From: Gemmatimonadota bacterium
GTDB lineage: Bacteria > Gemmatimonadota > Gemmatimonadetes > Gemmatimonadales > Gemmatimonadaceae
DNA length: 64,000 nt
Direction: 5' to 3'
NCBI GenBank assembly: GCA_040389905.1
Contig: JAZJZK010000030.1
Coordinates: forward strand, 22,085-86,084
Shown here: in pieces, positions 4,234 to 27,387 of the stretch
How the letters are laid out: the number at the start of each line of letters is the position of its first letter
Position numbering within the stretch: position 1 is the first letter of the stretch
Made by a program: the position numbers and the translations under genes
Notes under the pieces: generated by a model
The model's database searches: none
What the model saw: only the letters and a program-made list of their open reading frames with translations
What the model was told of the DNA's origin: nothing

Positions 4234-4370
4234 GGAGCATAACAGTGGTGACCCAGGTGCCGGTCCTTCACTCGCCTGCAAGCGGAAGTACCGGCGGCTT
4301 CACCTCGCATTGCTCGCACACTGTGACCACGTTTATCTGGCCACAGACTGCACCCTAACCTGCTGTTCAC

Positions 4371-6020
4371 ATGAGCCTCGACCCCCACGCCGGCGAGCTA
4401 CCCGCGCAGGCTAAGCTCGCGAACGTCCCACGTCTCGTCTCGGCGTACTATACCGAGCGCCCCGATCCGAGCGTCCGGGCACAGCGTGTGAGCTTCGGGA
4501 CCTCTGGCCACCGCGGCTCGGCGTTCAATTGCGCGTTCAATGAGTGGCACATCCTCGCGATCACCCAGGCCATTTGCGAGTATCGCGCGACGCAGGGCAC
4601 GAACGGTCCGCTCTTCCTCGGCATCGATACGCACGCGCTGTCGGAGCCGGCATATGCCAGTGCGCTCGAAGTCCTCGCTGCCAACGGCGTCGACGTGATG
4701 ATTGATTCGCGGTCGGGGTTCACCCCCACGCCAGCGGTATCGCATGCGATTCTCGCGTACAATAAGAATCGCGTCTCCGGCCTTGCGGATGGAATTGTCG
4801 TGACGCCGTCGCACAATCCGCCGGAGGACGGCGGCTTCAAGTACAACCCGCCGAACGGCGGGCCTGCGGACACGAGCGCCACCGGCTGGATTCAGGAGAA
4901 GGCGAATGCGTTCATCGCCGGCGGCCTCCGGGACGTGCGACGCATGCCGTTCGACCGAGCGAAGCGCTCGGCAACGACGCACCAACACGACTACGTCAAT
5001 GCGTACGTCGCAGACTTGCCGAGCGTGATCGATCTCGACGTCATCCGCGAATCGAGTTTGACGCTTGGCGTCGATCCGCTGGGGGGTGCGGGTGTCGCGT
5101 ATTGGGGAGAGATCGCGGAGCGCTACAAGTTGCCGCTGACTGTCGTGAGTGATGCGGTCGATCCCACCTTCAGGTTCATGAGCCTCGATTGGGACGGCCG
5201 CATCCGCATGGACTGTTCGTCTCCATACGCGATGCAGCGGTTGATCGGCTCGCGCGAATCGTACGATGTGGCTTGGGCGTGCGACACGGACCACGACCGG
5301 CACGGGATCGTCGCGCGAAGTACGGGTCTCCTCAATCCCAACCACTACCTCGCGGTCAGCAGCTCGTACCTCTTCGCCAATCGCCCGCAGTGGTCGCCCA
5401 CCGCGGGCATCGGCAAGACCATCGTGAGCAGCAGCATGATCAACCGCGCTGCTGAACAAATCGGCCGCCGCGTATTGGAGGTGCCCGTCGGCTTCAAGTG
5501 GTTTGTCGACGGTCTCATGACCGGAGCACTCGGCTTTGTCGGCGAGGAGAGCGCGGGCGCAACGTTCCTCCGTCGCGACGGAACGGTCTGGACGACCGAC
5601 AAGGACGGCCTGATCCTTGGACTTCTAGCCGCGGAGATGACCGCCGTGACGGGAAAGGATCCGGGACAGCTCTATACCGACCTTACCGAACGTCTCGGTG
5701 CTCCAGTATACGAGCGGATCGACGCTCCGGCGACTCCGGAGCAGAAGGCGGTACTCGCCAGGCTTTCGCCCGCCGATGTTTCGGCGTCGGAGCTCGCGGG
5801 GGAACCAATCACGAGCCGAATGACGACGGCGCCTGGGAATGGTGCCTCGATTGGCGGCCTGAAGGTCGAGACGCGCGACGGCTGGTTCGCTGCACGACCA
5901 TCGGGCACCGAAGATGTCTACAAACTCTACGCCGAGAGCTTCCTCGGTGAGTCGCACCTGCGCCAGATCCAGAGTGAAGGGCAGGAGATCATACAGCGCG
6001 CTTTCAACGCCCAGAAATGA
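4371..6020 (+). CDS. pgm: Phosphoglucomutase, alpha-D-glucose-phosphate specific
   Basis: FGTSGHRG, TPSHNP, DTDHDR, GEESAG, RPSGTE. Confidence 0.95.
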   Translation: MSLDPHAGELPAQAKLANVPRLVSAYYTERPDPSVRAQRVSFGTSGHRGSAFNCAFNEWHILAITQAICEYRATQGTNGPLFLGIDTHALSEPAYASALEVLAANGVDVMIDSRSGFTPTPAVSHAILAYNKNRVSGLADGIVVTPSHNPPEDGGFKYNPPNGGPADTSATGWIQEKANAFIAGGLRDVRRMPFDRAKRSATTHQHDYVNAYVADLPSVIDLDVIRESSLTLGVDPLGGAGVAYWGEIAERYKLPLTVVSDAVDPTFRFMSLDWDGRIRMDCSSPYAMQRLIGSRESYDVAWACDTDHDRHGIVARSTGLLNPNHYLAVSSSYLFANRPQWSPTAGIGKTIVSSSMINRAAEQIGRRVLEVPVGFKWFVDGLMTGALGFVGEESAGATFLRRDGTVWTTDKDGLILGLLAAEMTAVTGKDPGQLYTDLTERLGAPVYERIDAPATPEQKAVLARLSPADVSASELAGEPITSRMTTAPGNGASIGGLKVETRDGWFAARPSGTEDVYKLYAESFLGESHLRQIQSEGQEIIQRAFNAQK

Positions 6021-8900: not shown

Positions 8901-10214
8901 ATGACGACCGACCTGCACGACGAGGATTGCGGGTGTCCTGAGTACCGCGAGTTGACGCGACGGCAGTTCGTCGGCGCCGCGGGTGGCACCATGGGTGCGA
9001 TGGCCGCGAGCTATTACCCCGCGTGGTTGCCAAAGGTGGTGTTGGCCGAGACGTATGCGGGCGCGCGCGATGTGTTGCTGTCCGTGTTCATGCGTGGCGG
9101 AGCGGACGGCCTCTCCCTGTGCGTGCCCTTTGGCGATGCGTCCTACTACACGGGGCGCTCGACGATTGCGGTGCCGCGCCCTGACGCTGCCGGCAACACG
9201 GCGACCAAGGGCATCGCGCTCGACAACTTCTTCGCGTTTCCGCAGGCGATGTCCGGCCTCATGACCGCGTACACCGCGAAGGACCTGCTGATCGTTCATG
9301 CGACGGGTCAGTTCAATAATTCGCGTTCGCACTTCGACGCGCAGCGGTACATGGAGGTCGGGAAGCCGCTGGACCCGACGCTCGTGACGGGTTGGTTGGG
9401 TCGCCATCTCGCGAGTGTGCCACCCCTTCGGAGCAACGCACCGTTGCGCGCGCTGGGCCTCTCCAACGGCCTGCCCAAGTCACTGGTGGGCGCGCCGAAG
9501 ACGCTGCCGATCTCGAATCCAGCGAACTTTGCCCTCAGCGGCACCGCGGCGACGGCGGCCTCGCGACTCGCATTTCTCGCCTCGGACTTCGCGACCGCCA
9601 GCGAGCCGGTGCATTCCTCGGCACTCGACGCGACCAACACGGTGGCGTTGCTGCAAGCCGTCGGCATTGCGGCATACAAGCCAGCAAATGGCGCGGTCTA
9701 TCCAACAACGAATTTCGGCAATGCGCTCAAGTCTGTCGCCGCGTTGATCAAGGCAGATATCGGGATCGAGGCGGCGCAGGTGGACATCGGCGGTTGGGAT
9801 ACGCATTCGGCGCAAGACCCGCTCGCCGGCTCCATGTTCCGCACGATGCAGGATTTCTCGAACTCGCTCGCGGCGTTCTATCTGGACTGCGTCACCACGG
9901 CGACGACCAATGGTGTCACCGCTGTCGCCGTGTCCGAATTCGGGAGGAATGCGAAGGAAAACGGGAGTGCCGGCACCGATCACGGGCGAGGCACGGTGAT
10001 GTTTGCCATGGGGAAGAACATCGCCGGCGGTCGCGTGATGGTGAATAACTGGCCCGGCCTAGCGATTCAGAATCTCGAGAACGGGCAAGATCTCAAGGTG
10101 ACGATCGACTACCGCGACATTCTCGCGGAAATCGTCAAGAACCGGCTGGACAACGCGGCGCTCGACGTGGTGTTCCCGGGCTGGAATACGACGATCCGCG
10201 GGGCGACGCGATAA
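8901..10214 (+). CDS. DUF1501 family protein
   Basis: TRRQF, RGGADGL, RSHFDAQ, GGWDTH, SEFGR, GTDHG; usual partner of DUF1800. Confidence 0.9.
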   Translation: MTTDLHDEDCGCPEYRELTRRQFVGAAGGTMGAMAASYYPAWLPKVVLAETYAGARDVLLSVFMRGGADGLSLCVPFGDASYYTGRSTIAVPRPDAAGNTATKGIALDNFFAFPQAMSGLMTAYTAKDLLIVHATGQFNNSRSHFDAQRYMEVGKPLDPTLVTGWLGRHLASVPPLRSNAPLRALGLSNGLPKSLVGAPKTLPISNPANFALSGTAATAASRLAFLASDFATASEPVHSSALDATNTVALLQAVGIAAYKPANGAVYPTTNFGNALKSVAALIKADIGIEAAQVDIGGWDTHSAQDPLAGSMFRTMQDFSNSLAAFYLDCVTTATTNGVTAVAVSEFGRNAKENGSAGTDHGRGTVMFAMGKNIAGGRVMVNNWPGLAIQNLENGQDLKVTIDYRDILAEIVKNRLDNAALDVVFPGWNTTIRGATR

Positions 10215-19331: not shown

Positions 19332-19874
19332 ATGACAGACGCGACCGCCGCGCAACCGTTCCCCAGTGACGAAGTACTGATCGAACGACTTCATGACGAC
19401 GTCGTCATTCCGCGCCGCGCGACAGCGGGGTCGGCAGGGCAGGATCTCCACGCCTATTTGCGAGGCCGATCGGTTCGCACGTCAGATGGCACGCAACAGT
19501 CCGACGTGCCGGCGTCCGAGCTGGATGGGAGTTGGGGAGTGACCCTCCAGCCGCGAGAGATGGCCCTCATCCCCCTTGGATTTCGCACGCGTATGCCACA
19601 CGGAATCGAAGCGCAAATCCGGCCGCGCAGTGGTCAAGCATTCAAGAACGCGCTGACCGTTCCGAACGCGCCCGGGACCATCGACGCCGACTATGCGGAG
19701 GAGTGGATGGTGATTGTACGAAACGATGCTCCGGTTGCGCGGCGGATCATCCACGGGGAACGGATCGCGCAGGTGGTCTTCGCGCGTTATGCGATGCCGG
19801 CGTTCGTTGACGGCTCCGTTTCCCGCACGACCGAAAGGGAAGGGGGTTTTGGAAGCACAGGGACGGGACGCTGA
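19332..19874 (+). CDS. dut: dUTP diphosphatase
   Basis: GSAGQDL, QIRPRSG, PGTIDADY, GERIAQ, REGGFGSTG. Confidence 0.95.
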   Translation: MTDATAAQPFPSDEVLIERLHDDVVIPRRATAGSAGQDLHAYLRGRSVRTSDGTQQSDVPASELDGSWGVTLQPREMALIPLGFRTRMPHGIEAQIRPRSGQAFKNALTVPNAPGTIDADYAEEWMVIVRNDAPVARRIIHGERIAQVVFARYAMPAFVDGSVSRTTEREGGFGSTGTGR

Positions 19875-19913: not shown

Positions 19914-20004
19914 CTATCGTCAACGTGGTCCCAGCCCTGTTACCTGGTGCTCACGAAAACGAAACCGGACCGCAAGACCGCCGATCCGCGTAAACCGTTG
20001 AAAG

Positions 20005-20049
20005 TTAACGGGTTACGGTGATCTTGCTGGTCCGAGGCTGACTAGACAA
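20005..20049 (-). other. Displaced copy of a 14-codon small ORF (MSSQPRTSKITVTR), now without RBS
   Basis: TTG...TAA, same length and register as 26217-26261. Confidence 0.55.
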
Positions 20050-20054
20050 TTGAT
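20039..20054. repeat. att core, left
   Basis: TGACTAGACAATTGAT, identical to 26251-26266. Confidence 0.88.
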
Positions 20055-20245
20055 GAAGTTCAAACTCATTCCATAATCATTACAAGAGGGAATAAGAGGG
20101 TTTAATATGATATGATTTTGGTTCTAAACCATTGTCAAACAATAACTTATTGCAATTCGAAGTAAACATTTTGTTGGGATACGGCAAGCTCTAGGAACAT
20201 TCTGAGGGATTCATGTACAGCAGATCGTACACGACAAAGTGTAAC

Positions 20246-20280
20246 TTGACAAATGTACATAAATGCTATATATTTAGCAC
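20246..20280 (+). promoter_or_regulatory. Sigma70-type promoter for the integrase (leaderless) with overlapping palindrome
   Basis: TTGACA-17 nt-TATATT-6 nt-ATG; TGCTA-N6-TAGCA brackets the -10. Confidence 0.7.
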
Positions 20281-21477
20281 ATGCCAAGAAAGAAGACACG
20301 TCACCACCGACCGAAGAACGGGGCAACGTTTTATGTAAACCGTCGATTTCCGCAATACGGCGTTCCACGGCTGTGCCGGTCAAGCGGCACAAACGACGAA
20401 AAGGTGTTTGACGACATCCAACGCCTGCTCGACCAACTCGGACAATTGGGAAGTCCGGAGGCAGCAAAGATCATCCAAGGGATTCACAAGAAGCGACTTA
20501 CCTTCGTCGATGCCCTTGGCGCGCACCAAGGTGAAGGCCGTCAGGGCATTATCAGGCTCGCTGAAGATGATGCTCCCATTGACGAGCGGTCCTTCCAAGC
20601 TTGGCTGGCAGTGCACGACGTAACCCAAAGCACTCGAACTTCATACAGGAACGCCTTCAAAGCGCTGGAAAAATTCGTGAAATCCGGCGACACGATGAAA
20701 TCGCTTCCCGCCGTGCTCGGGCGGTATCGGGATGACTGTGTGAAGCTCGGGAGGAACCGTAGGGCCTTCGACATCGCGCTCGCTGTCGCGCAGGCATGGG
20801 TCAAAAAAACAATCGGCCCGGCCTCAATGCCCTACCGCGACGTGCGGCTCGTCCAGCGGTTCAACGACAAGCCCGATGCCCGAAAGAGCAAGTACTTCAG
20901 CCCCCGTGACATCATGAATATTGCGCAGAGGCTCCCGGCACCGCTGGATGACGTCCTCTTCGCGACCGCATCTTATGGAACCAATCCGAAAGAGTATTTC
21001 AGCGACGGGTTCACGGTGACACCGGATGGCGTTGAAATTCATGGAGAGAAATCCAAGCACCGGAAGCGCATAGTTCCGCTCCTTCGAAATTTTCCGCCCG
21101 TAATACCGCCAGCATGGATCAATTATCGAAGATGGTGGCGGTATGTGACAATGGCATCAAATGGAGAGATGCTTCCTGACGATGCAAGGAAGTCATTTGC
21201 GCGCTGGATGTCAGAGGCGGGTATCCCCTTCAACCGCGCCGAACAATATCAAGGTCACGCTGAAACCACGCAGACGGCGACGTATTTCTATCACGTTGCG
21301 ACGGCGGGACAATTGAGAACAGATGGGCTGCTCCTCAACGATTGGATCAAAAAGAACCTTGAGCAGGAGCCCCCGAATCCAGCTGGGCGAGTCATAGCAA
21401 TTCGCCCGCGCGACGCAAAATACGAAAAGGGGATGCTGGTCCGGCCGCCGAAGCGAGCGTTGTGGCGGGAGGAATAG
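20281..21477 (+). CDS. Divergent tyrosine recombinase/integrase
   Basis: EKSKHRKRIVPL, DDARKSFARW, QGH, TATY; first catalytic Arg position reads YGTNPKE. Confidence 0.8.
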   Translation: MPRKKTRHHRPKNGATFYVNRRFPQYGVPRLCRSSGTNDEKVFDDIQRLLDQLGQLGSPEAAKIIQGIHKKRLTFVDALGAHQGEGRQGIIRLAEDDAPIDERSFQAWLAVHDVTQSTRTSYRNAFKALEKFVKSGDTMKSLPAVLGRYRDDCVKLGRNRRAFDIALAVAQAWVKKTIGPASMPYRDVRLVQRFNDKPDARKSKYFSPRDIMNIAQRLPAPLDDVLFATASYGTNPKEYFSDGFTVTPDGVEIHGEKSKHRKRIVPLLRNFPPVIPPAWINYRRWWRYVTMASNGEMLPDDARKSFARWMSEAGIPFNRAEQYQGHAETTQTATYFYHVATAGQLRTDGLLLNDWIKKNLEQEPPNPAGRVIAIRPRDAKYEKGMLVRPPKRALWREE

Positions 21478-21537
21478 GTGAAAGCCGAGCAACCCCTTTC
21501 ATCATTAATTCCACCTGAACTGTAGAGGCGACCACAA

Positions 21538-22014
21538 GTGCCGGAATTAAGTGTTTATCGCGGCGCAGTGTACTGGATGATTTCTGATTATGGATATCAA
21601 ACCTTGAACGAACCGGGCGACGCGGATAATGATATTCGCTTTCAATGCACCGCTAAGTCAGGGCGCTCCTATCGATCCCAATTTCTGCTATATCCAATCC
21701 AGCGCATTGCTAGAGTTGTCATTCATTTTGACCTGAGATATCACCCGAACCGAAGACTGTTCTTTGCGGAGGTAGTGCACCGTCTCAATGATTCCGTCGC
21801 TGTGCTCGGACATTTTGAATTTCACTGGGATTCCGGTCAGACGAGTTTCGTCTTTGGTGCCGAGGTGACGGACCCTGATCCCGAAACATTTGCGACGATG
21901 ATGAATCGCTGTGCTTACGCCATTGAGGTATGGGAGGCGGCGTCAGGATTCTTTAGCGGCAGACTCGGTGCGGACGGTGTCGTGTCCGTCGCTCAGATGT
22001 TGACAGAAGTCTAA
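21538..22014 (+). CDS. Hypothetical protein, YbjN/T3SS-chaperone-like fold
   Basis: 158-aa ORF; AEVVHRLNDSVAVLGHFEFHWDSG resembles YbjN-type domains. Confidence 0.5.
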   Translation: MPELSVYRGAVYWMISDYGYQTLNEPGDADNDIRFQCTAKSGRSYRSQFLLYPIQRIARVVIHFDLRYHPNRRLFFAEVVHRLNDSVAVLGHFEFHWDSGQTSFVFGAEVTDPDPETFATMMNRCAYAIEVWEAASGFFSGRLGADGVVSVAQMLTEV

Positions 22015-22105
22015 TGGGAATATCATATCATTTTGTTGCCGGAATCCCGAAAGCAGAAGGGATATTTTGGCGGTCGTATGCTTGGTCGGAATGCTGAATG
22101 ATCCT

Positions 22106-22345
22106 TCAGAGTTCCGGCAGGAAATACGCTATCGGTTTTCGGTACGCCACGGCCAAATCGCAAAGTTCCACAGGGTCAATTCGAATTTCTCCCTGTTCGA
22201 TCTTCGAAATGCGGCCTTGTGTAGTTCCGAGCCGTCCCGCGACCTGTACCTGAGTCAACCCAGCAGCCAAGCGGGCTTCACGGAGTTTGCGGAGCATCTC
22301 CCGGTATCGCGGATCGTGAATTGACCGGGGTTTTCGAGCGGGCAC
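22106..22345 (-). CDS. XRE-family HTH transcriptional regulator
   Basis: LREARLAAGLTQVQVAGRLGTTQGRISKIEQG. Confidence 0.92.
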   Translation of the reverse strand: MPARKPRSIHDPRYREMLRKLREARLAAGLTQVQVAGRLGTTQGRISKIEQGEIRIDPVELCDLAVAYRKPIAYFLPEL

Positions 22346-22459
22346 GGGCGGGTCGGTGAAGGACCCGCTGAAGATTTATTCCGTTTGCGAATACTCCGAA
22401 TAAGAATAATATTGCGGGCCGCTCGTGGTTCACTCCGCACCCCTCCAACACTCCACACA

Positions 22460-22732
22460 ATGCCACGCACCATCATCGCACTCGCCTTCACGATGGCAGC
22501 CTGTGCGAATTCATCTCGCCGAGAAGTTCAAGTTGACCAAATCACGGCGGCCTGCGAAACGAGGGAGCAGCTCAAGGCGTATCAAGGGTTCCACCGCATC
22601 AATGATGGCTGCGACTTCCTTGGGCTGAGTAGCGGCACAGTCACCGGGAAGCTTGCGGACCAAGGCGACACCTGGGCGAAGGTTGAGATAGGTGGTCGGA
22701 CTGTCTACGTAAGCCGAAGCGCAATTCACTAA
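22460..22732 (+). CDS. Small lipoprotein, possible SH3-like C-terminus
   Basis: [15 protein letters not shown] lipobox; [13 protein letters not shown]. Confidence 0.65.
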
Positions 22733-23466
22733 CCCACAACCGGCAAGTTCTCATGAAGAAATGCCCATGGTGTGCGGAGGAAATACAAGATGCAGCAATC
22801 CTGTGTCGATATTGTGGGCAAAGTACACTTCCGCAGAATATGCCGCCGAGTCCCGCGACCACGGCAAGTACAACAACGGCTTCCGATCACCAACCTGCCC
22901 CGGAGTACCCAGCAGATCCAGATAGCGTGAAACGCCGGCTGGGAGAGTTCGGTGGATCAATCGCAGGGGAATGCCGTGCATGCACGTACAAGGGTCAGAT
23001 CGGAGTGGACACTACGAACATCGGACCCTTCGCCGGATTGGGCCTTCCTGTGTTTTTCTTTGCGTGGACGTCTCTTGGACTTTTCATGTCGCTATTCCTT
23101 GGAGCGTTGACATCCATCGTCATGATTCTGGTCAAAGGCACCAAGGTTGTAACGTGCCCTCAGTGTGATCGCGCCAGCACTGTCGCAGTACATGTTTCGC
23201 ACTATGCTATTCCAATAGACGCGTTAGCCCGTACGCCAAGTGCCAGATCATAGCTGGTCAGGGGCATTGTTGAACCAACCGATTGCCGGGAACCTTGCGG
23301 ACCAAGGCGACACTTGGGCGAAGGTTGAAATAGGTGGACGGACCGTGTACGTAAGCCGAAGCGCAATTCACTAACCCACGACCGGCAAGTTCTCATGAAG
23401 AAATGCCCGTGGTGTGCGGAGGAAATACAAGATGCAGCAATCCTGTGTCGATATTGTGGGCAAAGT
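22644..23466 (+). repeat. 181-bp imperfect direct repeat (22644-22824 and 23286-23466)
   Basis: Covers the lipoprotein 3' end, the spacer and the first 24 codons of both zinc-ribbon genes. Confidence 0.95.
22753..23253 (+). CDS. Zinc-ribbon (UPF0547-like) membrane protein, cassette 1
   Basis: [26 protein letters not shown] - TM hairpin - CPQC. Confidence 0.8.
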
Positions 23467-23811
23467 TCCCGACCGCAAGACATGCCATCCACGCATCCCT
23501 CGGTAGCGGCAGGGATGGCCACGGGCATACGCGATGCCACAGGCAAACTGAATTGGAACAAAGTAGCAGAGCAAATGACACGGTGTATCCATTGCCAGTC
23601 AATGGACACTGGGGTCAAGTACACCCTCTGGCATTGGCTCGTCGGAATCGGCTGGTTCCCGATCGGAACCGTATTCGCCATGTTGTTTCCAGCACGGCGC
23701 TGCAATGAATGCGGGAAGTGTTTCGGTCCAGCATACGAAGGAATGAAGACAGTGGTCACCCTTTCGCTGATTTGCCTATCCTTGCTCGCCATCTTCATAT
23801 TCGTCATTTGA
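23395..23811 (+). CDS. Zinc-ribbon (UPF0547-like) membrane protein, cassette 2
   Basis: Same N-terminus; CIHC - hydrophobic segment - CNEC; C-terminal TM. Confidence 0.8.
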
Positions 23812-24002
23812 TGATATGAAGCGAGGCCCCAAGGCAGACGGTCTTTTTCTTAGTGGCCAAAGACGCTGGAGAAAGCCTCATGGTGCGCGCCGGATAAAAC
23901 AATATCGGAGCCATATTGTTATGCTGGACGCCTTCCGCCAACCACCGACAAATCCCGGCATCGCTCCTATTTATGGATTGACCCATAAATTGGAGAATTA
24001 TC

Positions 24003-24221
24003 ATGCAGGATCAATTACTTACGACAGCAGAAGTGTGCGAAATATTCCGTTGCAGCGAGCGTAGTGTTAACAGGATGGTGGCGGATGGAATTCTGAACCC
24101 TCTGCGTTTGCGGGGGCTGGTTCGTTTTCGGCAGTCGGAACTCGATGAATTGATTGAGGCGCTTGACTTGAACCCGGATGAATGTCAGTGCGATGGCCAG
24201 TGTGAATGCGTGAAAGAGTAG
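24003..24221 (+). CDS. Excisionase-like HTH (HTH_17/MerR-like) protein
   Basis: LLTTAEVCEIFRCSERSVNRMVADGIL...VRFRQSELD; GGAG RBS. Confidence 0.85.
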   Translation: MQDQLLTTAEVCEIFRCSERSVNRMVADGILNPLRLRGLVRFRQSELDELIEALDLNPDECQCDGQCECVKE

Positions 24222-24302
24222 TGCAGGTCACAGGCCCTTGATCCAACTAAAAACGTTCAACCGCTGTCTGCCACGTCGGTCTCTCATGCAGGTACAAAAG
24301 TG

Positions 24303-24343
24303 AAAAGCTCCCCATCCGGCTTTGCTGCCGGGGGGAGCCTTTT
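24303..24343. terminator. Bidirectional intrinsic terminator between xis and the polymerase gene
   Basis: AAAA-GCTCCCC..CCGGC loop GCCGG GGGGAGC-CTTTT. Confidence 0.75.
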
Positions 24344-24419
24344 GTATCACAAATAGCTTACCTGAACACTATAAAGGGTAACGGAAGAAGTTATGATATT
24401 GTTGGGCGCCCTTTCCACT

Positions 24420-25844
24420 TCATAGCTGTTCCCCCTTCAACCTCAATCCAATATCAAAGGCAAATGCCTGAATGGATGATTTACTGAGTGAGTGTTCAAG
24501 AAACGCTATATCAAACGGTTCTTTCGAGATCCATCCGTCATGCATTGGTACAAGAATATCTGAACGGTTGGCACAGCATATGTTCAACGCCCAAGCTTCG
24601 TATCCCAGCATGATGAAGGACAAGAGTCTCTTGCGGGGGTAATTCTTGCCGTCTGATTTCCGCAGGGGGTGAATCTTTCCGGCAGCGTTCCTGACATGGG
24701 TGAATCTCCTTCCCGTTCGAACCCTGTGGGCATTTATGAGTGTTTTCCTTGCTGACCGAATTTCGAGTTGAATCATGTGATAATACGGGTCGGCTAGGAT
24801 GCGCTCGGCTCCCAATTGTCCGGCAATGTCTACAAGCGTGGAGTATTTTCGATGTGAGGAACGACGGACTCCAAAGAAGGCTGCCAAGATTACTATTTTC
24901 ACCTTGTCCTTCGAAATCATCCATCTCCCGGAAAGCTCCTGCTGTCTTTCGGACAAGTGTGTGAGATAGTCACGAATGACGCACACGGGCCTGCCATAGT
25001 GTTTCCCAAGGCTGAAGAACAGTGATGGATGACATGCGTTGAAGTCATAGTTCCACCAGCCAGTATCTTTATACAGTTTCGCTCGTGCGCCCCGCTCCAT
25101 GCGTTGAAGGGAACATTCCCCGAGTCCCATGAGCCGCCCGGGGCCAGTGTGCGGCTCGCTCTCGGGTTTGAAGTCATGGTATAGGTTCGGGACGCCCCCC
25201 GCGACGCGAATCCATTGGCGGACCTTGTACAGCGAACGCAGCCCTTCCACGGACTGGTTCGACGCTCGCGATGCCTTCGCTGCGATTTCTGCCTCAAAAT
25301 CAGCAATCAGCGTGTCCACCCGCTGCGTGTCAAACGGAATCACGGATGGAACACTGAATTGAAAAAATGATGTCCGGAGAATGCCATCAGCGGGGAAGTG
25401 CTGTGCGCCCGATTCCCACGCAATGCTAGCGGTCTTGTCCCGCCAACAATCTGTAAGGAGTATCTCGACAGGGCGGCACAGAAAATATGCTTTTGTATAT
25501 CGCCCCTCCTCGTACCCGTCGTCCCCATCCGGGAAATGCCACAGATTCCGGAGATACTTCTTGTAGTCTGACTCGCTGCCCCCAAGATGTTTCCTCAACC
25601 TGCGTTCGATGAAGCTCGACCCACGGGCGATTTGCGGTCCAATATGGTGTGCTGCCAAAGCGGATGGGATTGGGTGCGTGTGCGGGCGGGAGAGGAAGTA
25701 CGACATGTTCAGATACTTCACGAGATGTCGCACTTTCCGATCTATTTCCCGCTGTCGCTTCATCTGGGCGCGTACGTGGGCCTCCACGAAAGCGTCAAGC
25801 TCGGGGAGTCGCAGTCGTGGTGCTGCTTCGAGAACAGTGGACAT
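24420..25844 (-). CDS. Stand-alone family-A-like polymerase (TV-Pol-like), no recognisable exonuclease domain
   Basis: GRLMG...SLQRM, motif A YDFNACHP, motif B KDKVKIVILAAFFG, motif C PMHDGW, in PolA order. Confidence 0.7.
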   Translation of the reverse strand: MSTVLEAAPRLRLPELDAFVEAHVRAQMKRQREIDRKVRHLVKYLNMSYFLSRPHTHPIPSALAAHHIGPQIARGSSFIERRLRKHLGGSESDYKKYLRNLWHFPDGDDGYEEGRYTKAYFLCRPVEILLTDCWRDKTASIAWESGAQHFPADGILRTSFFQFSVPSVIPFDTQRVDTLIADFEAEIAAKASRASNQSVEGLRSLYKVRQWIRVAGGVPNLYHDFKPESEPHTGPGRLMGLGECSLQRMERGARAKLYKDTGWWNYDFNACHPSLFFSLGKHYGRPVCVIRDYLTHLSERQQELSGRWMISKDKVKIVILAAFFGVRRSSHRKYSTLVDIAGQLGAERILADPYYHMIQLEIRSARKTLINAHRVRTGRRFTHVRNAAGKIHPLRKSDGKNYPRKRLLSFIMLGYEAWALNICCANRSDILVPMHDGWISKEPFDIAFLEHSLSKSSIQAFAFDIGLRLKGEQL

Positions 25845-25874
25845 AAAAAAACCTCATACGGTTAGGGTATGAGG
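25845..25874 (-). promoter_or_regulatory. Terminator/RBS-sequestering hairpin directly abutting the polymerase ATG
   Basis: Minus strand CCTCATAC-CCTAACC-GTATGAGG-TTTTTTT-ATG. Confidence 0.7.
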
Positions 25875-26216
25875 AGCCGTCGTACTGAATGTGCTTCGCT
25901 GATAGGGGTTACTCCCGATCGTTCCAGCCGCTCGCTACGTCGCCTCCAACATGGTTACCATTGCACAAAGCATCATTCGGGCAAAATCGTCAAGGGGTCT
26001 TCAATCCCGCCAATTCAAAACATGATTTTGAGCTTGAAGGGACGGATGCACCCCGACGAGCGGGAACTATCAATACTAGAAACGACGAGAGCGACAGCAG
26101 GCCCGATGCCAACTGTCGCTCTCTGTCATTGTGACGGTTTCCGGCCCTGTGCACAGGAATCCGTACATCAATGTTTCGGACTAGCTCAAGGCCAATCCTA
26201 CGTAAGCCGTTGAAAG

Positions 26217-26261
26217 TTATAAGCTTACGGTGACCCTGAAAAGCCGAAAATGACTAGACAA
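26217..26261 (-). CDS. 14-aa small ORF (MSSHFRLFRVTVSL) reconstituted across the right att site
   Basis: Perfect SD AAGGAGGTGATC (26264-26275) with AGGAGG 7 nt before TTG; homolog at 20005-20049. Confidence 0.55.
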   Translation of the reverse strand: MSSHFRLFRVTVSL

Positions 26262-26266
26262 TTGAT
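26251..26266. repeat. att core, right
   Basis: TGACTAGACAATTGAT. Confidence 0.88.
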
Positions 26267-26394
26267 CACCTCCTTCGTTTCGGGGTTGTACTTGAGGGCG
26301 AACGGAATCTCATACTCAAATTGAAACGTAGAGTTCCTTGGCGCAAGCGTCAGCGGAGAATTTCCGAGCGCGCCCAAGAGCTCAACTGGAGCAC

Positions 26395-27147
26395 ATGCCG
26401 AACAAATCGATCTCCGCGTTGAAAGCCGACGCCAGAAGCTATTGGACGCTCAGCCGCTCTCATCGCTACAGTCTGCTGTTTGCGTTGCCGCTGCTGCTCC
26501 TCTACGAGTTCCTCGAAGCCGTTGCACCCGTGCGAGAGCGCGGCGGCGTGGTGCGGAATGGCGCGGATGTCGTGCTCACGGGCTTGTCCACCTGGCTGAT
26601 CGGCCCGCGCGGACCCCTGGTCTTCATGGGGATCGTGATCGGCGTATCGCTCTGGCTCATTTATCGAGATCGCGGCGCGGGCCGCGTTCGCGTCAGCATG
26701 TTCGGTGCGATGTTTGGCGAATCGGTCGTGCTCGCGCTTGTCTTCGGGCTGGTCGTCGGCATGGTGACCGTCCAGGTCCTTGGTCCCTTGCGCGCGTTGG
26801 CGGCTGGCGGCGCGGTGCCCGGATCCTCTATCGCGCGACTCACGCTGTCGCTCGGCGCGGGGCTGTATGAGGAGCTGCTGTTTCGCGTCGTCATCGTGGC
26901 GCTGCTGGCTAATGCGTTCCGCTTGCTCGGCGCCGGGCGCCTCTCGGCCGGCATCGTGGCCACAGTCATCGGCGCGTTGCTCTTCTCGGCGTTTCACTAT
27001 ATCGGCGCACTGGGCGATCCGTTTACGCTCGAGTCGTTTGTGTTCCGCGCTATTGCCGGGCTGGCGTTTAGCGCACTGTATCTCACGCGTGGTTTCGGCA
27101 TTACCGCGTGGACGCACGCGCTCTATGACGTGGCGGTACTGATGTAG
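26395..27147 (+). CDS. CPBP (Abi/CAAX) family intramembrane glutamic endopeptidase
   Basis: EELLFR, FSAFH, HALYD; multiple TM segments. Confidence 0.9.
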   Translation: MPNKSISALKADARSYWTLSRSHRYSLLFALPLLLLYEFLEAVAPVRERGGVVRNGADVVLTGLSTWLIGPRGPLVFMGIVIGVSLWLIYRDRGAGRVRVSMFGAMFGESVVLALVFGLVVGMVTVQVLGPLRALAAGGAVPGSSIARLTLSLGAGLYEELLFRVVIVALLANAFRLLGAGRLSAGIVATVIGALLFSAFHYIGALGDPFTLESFVFRAIAGLAFSALYLTRGFGITAWTHALYDVAVLM

Positions 27148-27155
27148 GTCCCTTC

Positions 27156-27367
27156 AACAGACGTACGAGGTACCCTGAACCTGGTACCCGGATTGGCATC
27201 CAACCCAGAGGAGCCATCGACACGTTCGATGGCATCCTACGCTCCGCAGGGGCCAGCTTGGGCCGCGTGTGAGGCAAGACGTTCGTAGTGCGACACAGCC
27301 ATCTATGGCTCCTCTCGGCAAGCGGGCCAGTCCGGATACCAACGTCCTGGTACCTCGTACGTCAGTT
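27156..27367. repeat. About 210-bp rod-hairpin repeat, copy 2
   Basis: AACAGACGTACGAGGTACC ... GGTACCTCGTACGTCAGTT; arms homologous to 16135-16340. Confidence 0.85.
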
Positions 27368-27387
27368 GTATGGTTTCGGCGAGGGTT

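Follow-up and report, generated by a model that had tools for sequence, protein, structure and literature searches.

A 6.2-kb integrative element between dut and a CPBP protease gene

The window analysed here, a stretch of 64,000 nucleotides from contig JAZJZK010000030.1 (C30) of a Gemmatimonadota genome of 5.08 Mb and 85% completeness, contains a 6212-bp site-specific integrative element, in which a tyrosine integrase is accompanied by a stand-alone, family A-like DNA polymerase of 474 aa. The element lies between host genes for a dUTPase (dut, 19332..19874, plus strand; PF00692, E 3e-17), which adjoins the empty site in relatives, and a CPBP/Rce1-like protease (26338..27147, plus strand; PF02517, E 6e-10). 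It is delimited by two copies of an exact 16-bp direct repeat, TGACTAGACAATTGAT, spaced 6212 bp apart and forming the left (20039..20054) and right (26251..26266) attachment (att) cores, neither assigned to a strand; chance would supply some 0.02 exact 16-mer pairs per 10.5 kb. GC content is 52.5% in the element but 63.4% across the genome, and the 6-kb stretches flanking it have 63.4% and 63.9%. An earlier note on this DNA had described the repeat, its spacing, the AT-richer interior and the gene set, all of which we confirm; the repeat is indeed exact but extends further than stated, with the 16 bp forming the 3' end of a longer repeat of 66–76 nt with 76–77% identity (blastn against the own genome, E 2.5e-6). 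Both att junctions are spanned without differences by Logan contigs of run X1, the sole run with the element, which makes an artefact of assembly improbable at either junction, though the run, available as contigs only, is probably the source sample. Runs X2 and X3 yielded nothing.

An empty-site search of 61 genomes, using dut and the left junction as query, returned 24 non-self loci. The site was uninterrupted in 20 of these, as anticipated by the earlier note for an integrative element at the dut–CPBP locus, and the CPBP gene lay beside the site within the locus in 6 of the 20. In five loci (L002, L003, L005, L013 and L022) the exact 16-bp core, present as a single copy at the empty site, is joined to the left and right host arms known from the genome analysed here. 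One empty-site locus (L009) stems from an unpublished genome (G012), and no conclusion rests on it. The other 54 genomes of the genus gave no match to the integrase or to the polymerase.

The integrase gene (398 aa, 20281..21477, plus strand; PF00589, E 7.5e-5, which is below the curated cut-off; phrog_1, E 7e-7) opens the element, and the polymerase gene (24420..25844, minus strand) stands near its other end. Between them lie a gene for a 158-aa protein (21538..22014, plus strand), an XRE-family regulator of 79 aa (22106..22345, minus strand; HTH_3, E 2e-12), three small cargo genes and an excisionase (Xis)-like HTH_17 protein of 72 aa (24003..24221, plus strand; HTH_17, E 1e-12; phrog_66), homologues of which adjoin the polymerase gene in L068 (38% identity) and L030. 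The earlier note had counted four cargo genes: three of these stand, whilst the 158-aa gene is probably core, since it is conserved beside the integrase gene in the sister element L068 (32% identity, E 1e-18). Its product, which has no Pfam or PHROG match, may be YbjN-like. The cargo comprises a gene with a weak SH3_3 match (22385..22732, plus strand; E 0.02; true start probably downstream of 22385), a zinc-ribbon protein with a hydrophobic C-terminal part (22753..23253, plus strand; Zn_ribbon_3, E 1.6e-4) and a second zinc-ribbon protein (23395..23811, plus strand). A 201-bp duplication (22644-22844 / 23286-23486, 93% identical) shared by the two zinc-ribbon genes connects the start of both with the end of the SH3-like gene; similar repeated small cargo is also seen in L031 and L069.

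As stated in the earlier note, capsid, terminase, relaxase, helicase, primase and Rep families were without a match (Pfam, PHROG) among the 9–10 element open reading frames (ORFs) scanned, and no Walker A motif was found in element ORFs of at least 150 aa. In the PHROG search of 9 ORFs, nothing below E 1e-3 pointed to the packaging, capsid-size, Pri or Rep functions of phage satellites. A profile built on the partner gene of the plasmid branch described below, which covers this one family of single-strand-binding (SSB)-like proteins, found none in the element, and four head-gene queries for a helper gave no match in the 85%-complete genome. With regard to expression, a sigma70-like promoter (20246..20274, plus strand; an 11/12 match to the consensus alone) ends 6 nt before the integrase ATG, and the integrase mRNA may be leaderless; the region is not enriched in promoter-like sites relative to shuffles (6 vs 4.8). 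A terminator-like hairpin with U run (25845..25874, minus strand), whose 3' arm bears the sole SD-like GAGG (SD, Shine-Dalgarno), ends at the polymerase start codon and could attenuate the polymerase gene; terminator-like sites, too, are not above shuffles (5 vs 7.3). Outside the element, a 48-nt inverted repeat (27150-27197 and 27326-27373) lies 3' of the CPBP gene, has related copies on other run X1 contigs and is REP-type-like.

The integration target is a conserved 14-codon mini-gene

The att core sits in a conserved minus-strand unit consisting of an upstream block, an extended Shine-Dalgarno sequence, a TTG start codon and a stop 14 codons on. The host 5' part of this target (26266..26350, minus strand) retains the conserved upstream block and the extended Shine-Dalgarno sequence (26266-26275). 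The original 3' part has been displaced to the other end of the element (19958..20054, minus strand), where it comprises codons 1–14 without the Shine-Dalgarno sequence (20005-20049) and a long hairpin, and is up to 94–99% identical to the uninterrupted site of relatives. In its place the element carries a replacement 3' half (26175..26250, minus strand) with codons 4–14, the stop codon and the hairpin, in which the frame is kept and which shows 76% identity to the host part over 76 nt: this replacement is the reason that the repeat exceeds 16 bp, and the integrated locus therefore again reads 14 codons to the stop. The reconstituted ORF (26217..26261, minus strand, TTG start) encodes a peptide that differs from the host-type peptide in 8 of 14 residues.

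The mini-gene motif was present in 27 of 31 relative loci scanned (the mini-gene relatives being L002–L025 and L077–L085), with exactly 14 codons in 25 and with 21 and 22 codons in the other two. By DNA search, the RNA was matched in 52/301 family genomes, adjoining dut, a tally that takes in the unpublished genome G540. Pairing was analysed in an alignment of the window with 25 relatives, the two longer-ORF loci being omitted. A 7-bp stem between the end of the Shine-Dalgarno sequence and the ORF is kept in 26/26 rows with no double changes. Further 3', an alternative stem of 11 bp reaches 81.7% pairing and shows double changes in 41 cells, a level that 0 of 500 shuffles attained; slid controls gave 31–63%. 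The 11-bp stem is support rather than proof, since it was drawn from the same sequences, which form few related groups. Folding of the reconstituted RNA was no better than that of shuffles (z -1.35), and an empty site with a terminator in the stretch gave z -4.4.

Neither the split locus nor any of 8 empty sites had a match in Rfam. The target is not a tRNA or tmRNA, and the SRP RNA, which is located elsewhere, was rejected; RNase P RNA was likewise rejected for lack of a match, and no copy of it was detected in the genome itself, which is 85% complete. In case of 6S RNA, also rejected, 6S-like candidates lie elsewhere in 4/5 relatives, all below the cut-off, and none was found in the own genome. 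Full-text searching, which covered few subscription papers, found no paper on the target RNA. The long Shine-Dalgarno sequence and the stem that blocks it are, to our mind, reminiscent of type I toxin mRNAs; the mini-gene peptide is basic, not hydrophobic. In a separate relative locus (L077, G033:C32:2360-10260) some 8 kb with two large ORFs lie between dut and an intact mini-gene, and the dut/mini-gene neighbourhood therefore receives other insertions too.

The 474-aa protein is modelled as a minimal family A polymerase

Sequence comparison found no match for the 474-aa protein in Pfam, PHROG, NCBIfam or PDB sequences, and 0/51 members of its own alignment match Pfam DNA_pol_A; there are, in turn, 450 relatives among representatives of 50%-identity clusters (E up to 1e-3). 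The AF2 model (pLDDT 92.7) supports the statement of the earlier note that the only replication-like gene is family A-like, with Foldseek and the VIA structure comparison in agreement: the Foldseek PDB rows listed are all family A DNA polymerases (KlenTaq, E 2.5e-7), and in VIA family A chains score Z 13–15 (Pol nu Z 15.3, rmsd (root-mean-square deviation) 4.1, 287 residues aligned; Klenow 14.8), whereas T7 RNA polymerase scores 11.3 and family B chains reach only Z 6–7 through the palm alone. The structural match spans residues 145–474. Thus, as modelled, the protein has a family A polymerase fold and is without exonuclease: none was found in the 474-aa protein, and residues 1–144 folded alone (pLDDT 83) match no exonuclease.

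R237, D267 and K316 are present in 130/130 full-length homologues and D436 and E416 in 129/130, and the protein is therefore consistent with an active enzyme. D267 and D436 are the two catalytic Asp residues of the palm. R237 lies within a GRL motif before motif A, where DSSP gives just short strands, and no Asp is conserved at 70% or more between motifs A and C. The thumb is modelled as two helices (173-189 and 196-215, within the segment 173-215) and matches coiled coils. The homologues depart from PolA at two positions: Arg stands four residues before K316, as in an RxxxK motif, in 3/130, and position D+5, which we take to be that of the PolA steric-gate Glu, is His in 115/130. The N-terminal domain (1-145) contains short strands; alone it shows no clear fold (best Z 5.3, no Foldseek match at E 1e-3), with many winged-helix proteins of MarR/MotA type at Z 3.5–4.5, which is within background.

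Genomic contexts of polymerase homologues

The polymerase was detected in 4/401 genomes of a phylum draw and in 6/401 of a family draw, two of the latter six matches being partial and one in the unpublished genome G666. In order to place it in context, we considered these loci together with 23 loci from other phyla and 7 viral contigs; 6 of 9 metagenome loci were weak 42-residue matches and were disregarded. The expectation of the earlier note that integrase and polymerase homologues co-occur in small repeat-bounded islands is borne out by L030, L044 and L068. L068 is a sister element beside a tRNA end, with integrase (25%), 158-aa gene (32%), polymerase (35%) and Xis-like gene (38%) all represented, the integrase falling into the same clade, and with Schlafen/AlbA cargo. 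L030, an island of 7.9 kb at tRNA-Ser, has a 42-bp repeat and carries integrase, polymerase and xis, and L044 and L038, both from other phyla, are 7–8-kb tRNA-Arg islands, with an integrase in L044 and none seen in L038. In L031 an imperfect repeat of 7.1 kb surrounds the polymerase gene, with no integrase recognised inside, and in L032 the gene adjoins a large serine recombinase. Taken by recombinase type, an integrase is near the polymerase in the element itself and in L030, L044, L050, L055 and L068, and a resolvase in L033–35, L041, L043, L052 and L060–62. Further defence-type cargo is found near homologues in L037 (TIR/TPR) and L048 (AbiE).

A second set of homologues is of plasmid type: in L035, L041, L046 and plasmids pW9NP1 and pH8NP1 the polymerase gene has a small gene upstream of it and is accompanied by at least one of RepA_C, ParA and resolvase, and in pW9NP1 it is directly upstream of repA. 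The gene just upstream of the polymerase in 8 loci (7 distinct) gives a sub-cut-off match to the NF046043 phage replication protein (E 1e-9 to 8e-11), a product that we presume to be SSB-like. A conserved gene of ~125 aa directly upstream of the polymerase, with a weak match to NF046043, is a feature of the plasmid branch (L033, L034, L035, L041, L045, L046/L047 and L060); with the polymerase it would possibly form an independent PolA–SSB primase pair outside Firmicutes. A reading of the small plasmid gene as a separately encoded copy of the polymerase N-terminal domain was rejected. Elsewhere the polymerase gene follows a helicase and Toprim gene (L040) or is fused to a DUF5906 (D5-like NTPase) domain (L064).

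L058 (10,864 bp) and L061 (11,062 bp), two of the 7 viral contigs, have terminal repeats and carry HK97-type head genes together with ParA or resolvase; they look like plasmid-type capsid-forming satellites. The polymerase is the only replication-like gene recognised in either, and no tail, Rep or helicase gene was seen among the ORFs scanned (12/14 and 13/15). Homologues are hence not confined to full prophages, the condition under which the element would have been a decayed remnant according to the earlier note, and are spread over integrative islands, RepA plasmids and such 11-kb contigs. A tblastn search of named phages with the 474-aa protein gave no match (a P0054 query only weak ones, E 0.01–0.09), and the close polymerase clade was not found in viral contigs. 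As a whole the homologue contexts point to replication, yet REP fragments of two of the plasmids replicate without the polymerase, as discussed below.

Two further observations concern single loci. In L037, from Nitrosospira, a 7.1-kb repeat-bounded unit (2853-2954 / 9969-10070) with the polymerase and TIR/TPR genes adjoins an umuDC-like and SRAP cluster. In L069 an exact 24-bp repeat (4290-4313 / 5967-5990) stands just after the polymerase homologue; it appears dif-like to us, and the locus is possibly a Xer-exploiting element.

An integrase clade without the first catalytic arginine

By profile and fold the integrase is a tyrosine recombinase. In its active site the first catalytic Arg is replaced by Asn (N235) and the His of HxxR by Asp, whilst K257, R303, H326 and Y335 are kept. 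The integrase clade occurs in 14/401 genomes of the family draw, and the first Arg is absent in 7/14 (6/13 relatives) as well as in P0155 and P0156; the change is therefore a trait of the clade, members of which often exhibit Gly or Asn at the first Arg and Asp or Ser at the HxxR His (L089–L102, P0155, P0156). Four of the 14 matches contain a stop. A tRNA gene adjoins 7/13 of the clade relatives, and the element probably derives from tRNA-targeting ancestors. In the same draw the polymerase had no match in the 13 other genomes with the integrase clade, indicating that integrase and polymerase are modular partners.

Comparison to known systems

The earlier note had not recognised the combination of genes as a named class; this does not hold, since Iyer, Abhiman and Aravind (2008, PMC2579912) described TV-Pol genes beside lambda integrases, and the pairing of polymerase and integrase is therefore not new. 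In that work, a TV-Pol subset with an N-terminal TV-PolN domain, found beside lambda integrase, resolvase or transposase genes, was proposed to form replicative mobile elements. The 474-aa protein shares with TV-Pol a minimal nuclease-free family A core of 400–600 aa, a two-helix thumb, an invariant Arg, an RRM-like palm with two catalytic Asp residues and an extra N-terminal domain, together with integrase or resolvase neighbours and, in L064, the D5-like fusion. The Ma-LMM01 genome is named among the TV-Pol genomes (PMC2579912), and the only match of our polymerase profile in this phage is ORF30 (E 1.2e-6, hhalign probability 95.7), which stands beside two transposases and is presumably the TV-Pol gene meant there. 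A homologue of ORF30 is also present on a 13.7-kb Calothrix plasmid (AP018296.1, 12635-13570). Differences from TV-Pol are threefold: the RxxxK Arg is present in just 3/130 of our homologues, ORF30 likewise lacking it (Val in its place); TV-PolN was predicted to be all-helical (PMC2579912), whilst the N-terminal domain here has short strands; and the present element has a defined att site at either end and a defined empty site, with a mini-gene RNA as target. Because of the divergent RxxxK position we refer to the protein as a TV-Pol-like variant and not as a member. In the parts covered of a family A reclassification (PMC10201439) TV-Pol is unmentioned.

According to the available part of Bebel et al. 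2020 (PMC7581432), CCPol–MP was at that time the only biochemically characterised TV-Pol, and is a primase. Like CCPol–MP and the PolA–SSB primases of SCCmec-like elements (PMC7581432; Rice 2022, 10.1101/2022.12.02.518924; both in part), our protein is a family A polymerase that lacks an exonuclease and is encoded by an integrative element, and the plasmid branch of its family resembles the PolA–SSB arrangement in having a small SSB-like gene upstream. In contrast, CCPol is close to bacterial Pol I and, as far as these portions go, requires MP and the Cch2 helicase, whilst the element has neither an SSB match nor a helicase. Pipolins, in the sections of PMC5695915 and PMC11551731 available, are similarly integrative, with a recombinase, their own polymerase, variable cargo and direct repeats, but theirs is a primer-independent family B enzyme rather than one of family A. 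The divPolA2 proteins of Caudoviricetes (Yutin et al. 2024, PMC11348598, in part) also combine a family A palm, no exonuclease and an N-terminal globular domain of unknown kind; in contrast, they belong to phages of the 80-kb class that also encode PolB, and our profile finds no candidate in the representative MG592441, although remote kinship is possible. In tRNA/tmRNA islands (Islander, PMC4383910, in part) a tyrosine integrase likewise splits a gene that island DNA restores, leaving a displaced fragment; here the target is instead a non-tRNA structured RNA with a 14-codon ORF whose product is changed at 8/14 residues. Unlike phage satellites (PICI, cf-PICI, P4-like), the element is without their Pri/Rep and packaging or capsid-size genes, as judged from the PHROG search above.

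Possible role of the polymerase

The reading that we favour, and to which we give an even chance, is that of a site-specific element in a 14-codon mini-gene whose exonuclease-less TV-Pol-like polymerase would act as primase or initiator and aid copying of the excised circle. Recombination between the 16-bp cores, carried out by the integrase with the Xis-like protein, would release a circle and restore the host site, and upon integration the element would provide its target with a substitute 3' half, as tRNA-targeting islands do. In the integrated state the hairpin ending at the polymerase start codon would silence the gene; after excision the N-terminal domain might bind element DNA and the palm begin DNA synthesis, with the host helicase and replicase making the bulk. 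Spread would depend on a helper, since the element has no capsid or transfer gene.

Several observations speak against this reading. The circle junction or empty-site joint suggested as a check in the earlier note was found in none of the run X1 contigs, although contigs lose rare forms, and no replication origin was identified in the element. The hairpin before the polymerase gene is not evident in most of 18 relatives, for which start sites are approximate. CCPol needs MP for priming, and the element is without an SSB-like or helicase gene; the 474-aa protein itself has Lys at the position of the RxxxK Arg, which is rarely retained among its homologues; the integrase active site is altered; and the 13 other genomes of the integrase clade gave no polymerase match. 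Finally, as described in the available part of PMC6015842, the REP modules of pH8NP1 (11,169-1,508) and pW9NP1 (1,512-2,612) exclude the polymerase gene yet replicate in Polaromonas, and that of pH8NP1 also does so in Variovorax: polymerase homologues can therefore be accessory, and the self-replication raised in the earlier note is no more than a possibility.

The same plasmids provide the main argument for a plain integrative island whose polymerase is an accessory, serving gap filling, conversion of single-stranded DNA after transfer, repair or anti-phage synthesis, and is dispensable for copying. That the integrase clade usually travels without the polymerase, that defence-type cargo stands beside homologues in L068, L037 and L048 and that a repair role has been suggested for the similarly built divPolA2 (PMC11348598, part available) agree with this explanation. 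Against it, unrelated elements share the polymerase as a core gene, with rep, SSB-like, par, int and xis genes as its neighbours, and in L058 and L061 no other replication-like gene was recognised; we thus view the accessory role as possible, if on the unlikely side.

At the other extreme, the polymerase alone could be a complete replicase, a family A counterpart of the pipolin enzyme that would perform origin binding, priming and strand displacement round the 6.2-kb circle. No other replication gene was recognised in the element, the N-terminal domain of the polymerase is weakly winged-helix-like and neither Rep nor helicase was recognised in the circular 11-kb contigs; but there is neither a proofreading domain nor a helicase, the N-terminal fold match is within background, the two plasmids dispense with the polymerase and, in the part of PMC7581432 available, CCPol–MP products are short, all of which makes this decidedly improbable. 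We are only slightly less sceptical towards the most far-reaching, and in our estimate still improbable, combination: a helicase-free and SSB-free 6-kb replicon in which one 474-aa protein, made up of a DNA-binding domain and a minimal family A palm devoid of the motif B Arg and of the usual steric gate, would recognise the origin, prime and copy the circle, much as a pipolin does with family B, and also serve the 11-kb capsid-forming satellites, with an Arg-less integrase that targets a conserved micropeptide RNA and a peptide switched at every integration.

That the element is stranded, having integrated once and become immobile owing to a dead integrase, would fit the R-to-N and H-to-D changes and the lack of a circle in the run X1 contigs, but many members of the integrase clade have N or G and D or S at the same positions (the first Arg being absent in half of the matches), all element genes are open, both cores are identical and the GC content is still unlike that of the host, and we consider it very improbable. 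Least credible of all is a small T7-like RNA polymerase transcribing the element genes, which the His at D+5 and the T7 RNA polymerase match might suggest: DNA polymerases score higher, the protein is half the size of T7 RNA polymerase and there are few element genes to transcribe.

Implications

The element is complete, very small and of the class predicted in 2008; what is new about it is the mini-gene that it targets, the exchange of the encoded peptide and an integrase without the first catalytic Arg. Full-text searching, with few subscription papers covered, found no test of a helicase-free TV-Pol element. Because it is complete at 6.2 kb, its att sites are defined and its empty site is known, it is small and clonable enough to ask whether a family A palm on its own can prime or replicate DNA. 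The polymerase represents a large family (450 clusters at 50% identity) that is without a Pfam, PHROG or NCBIfam model, the target site reveals a conserved, unannotated 14-codon mini-gene RNA, and the integrase clade raises the question of how a tyrosine recombinase functions without its first catalytic Arg.

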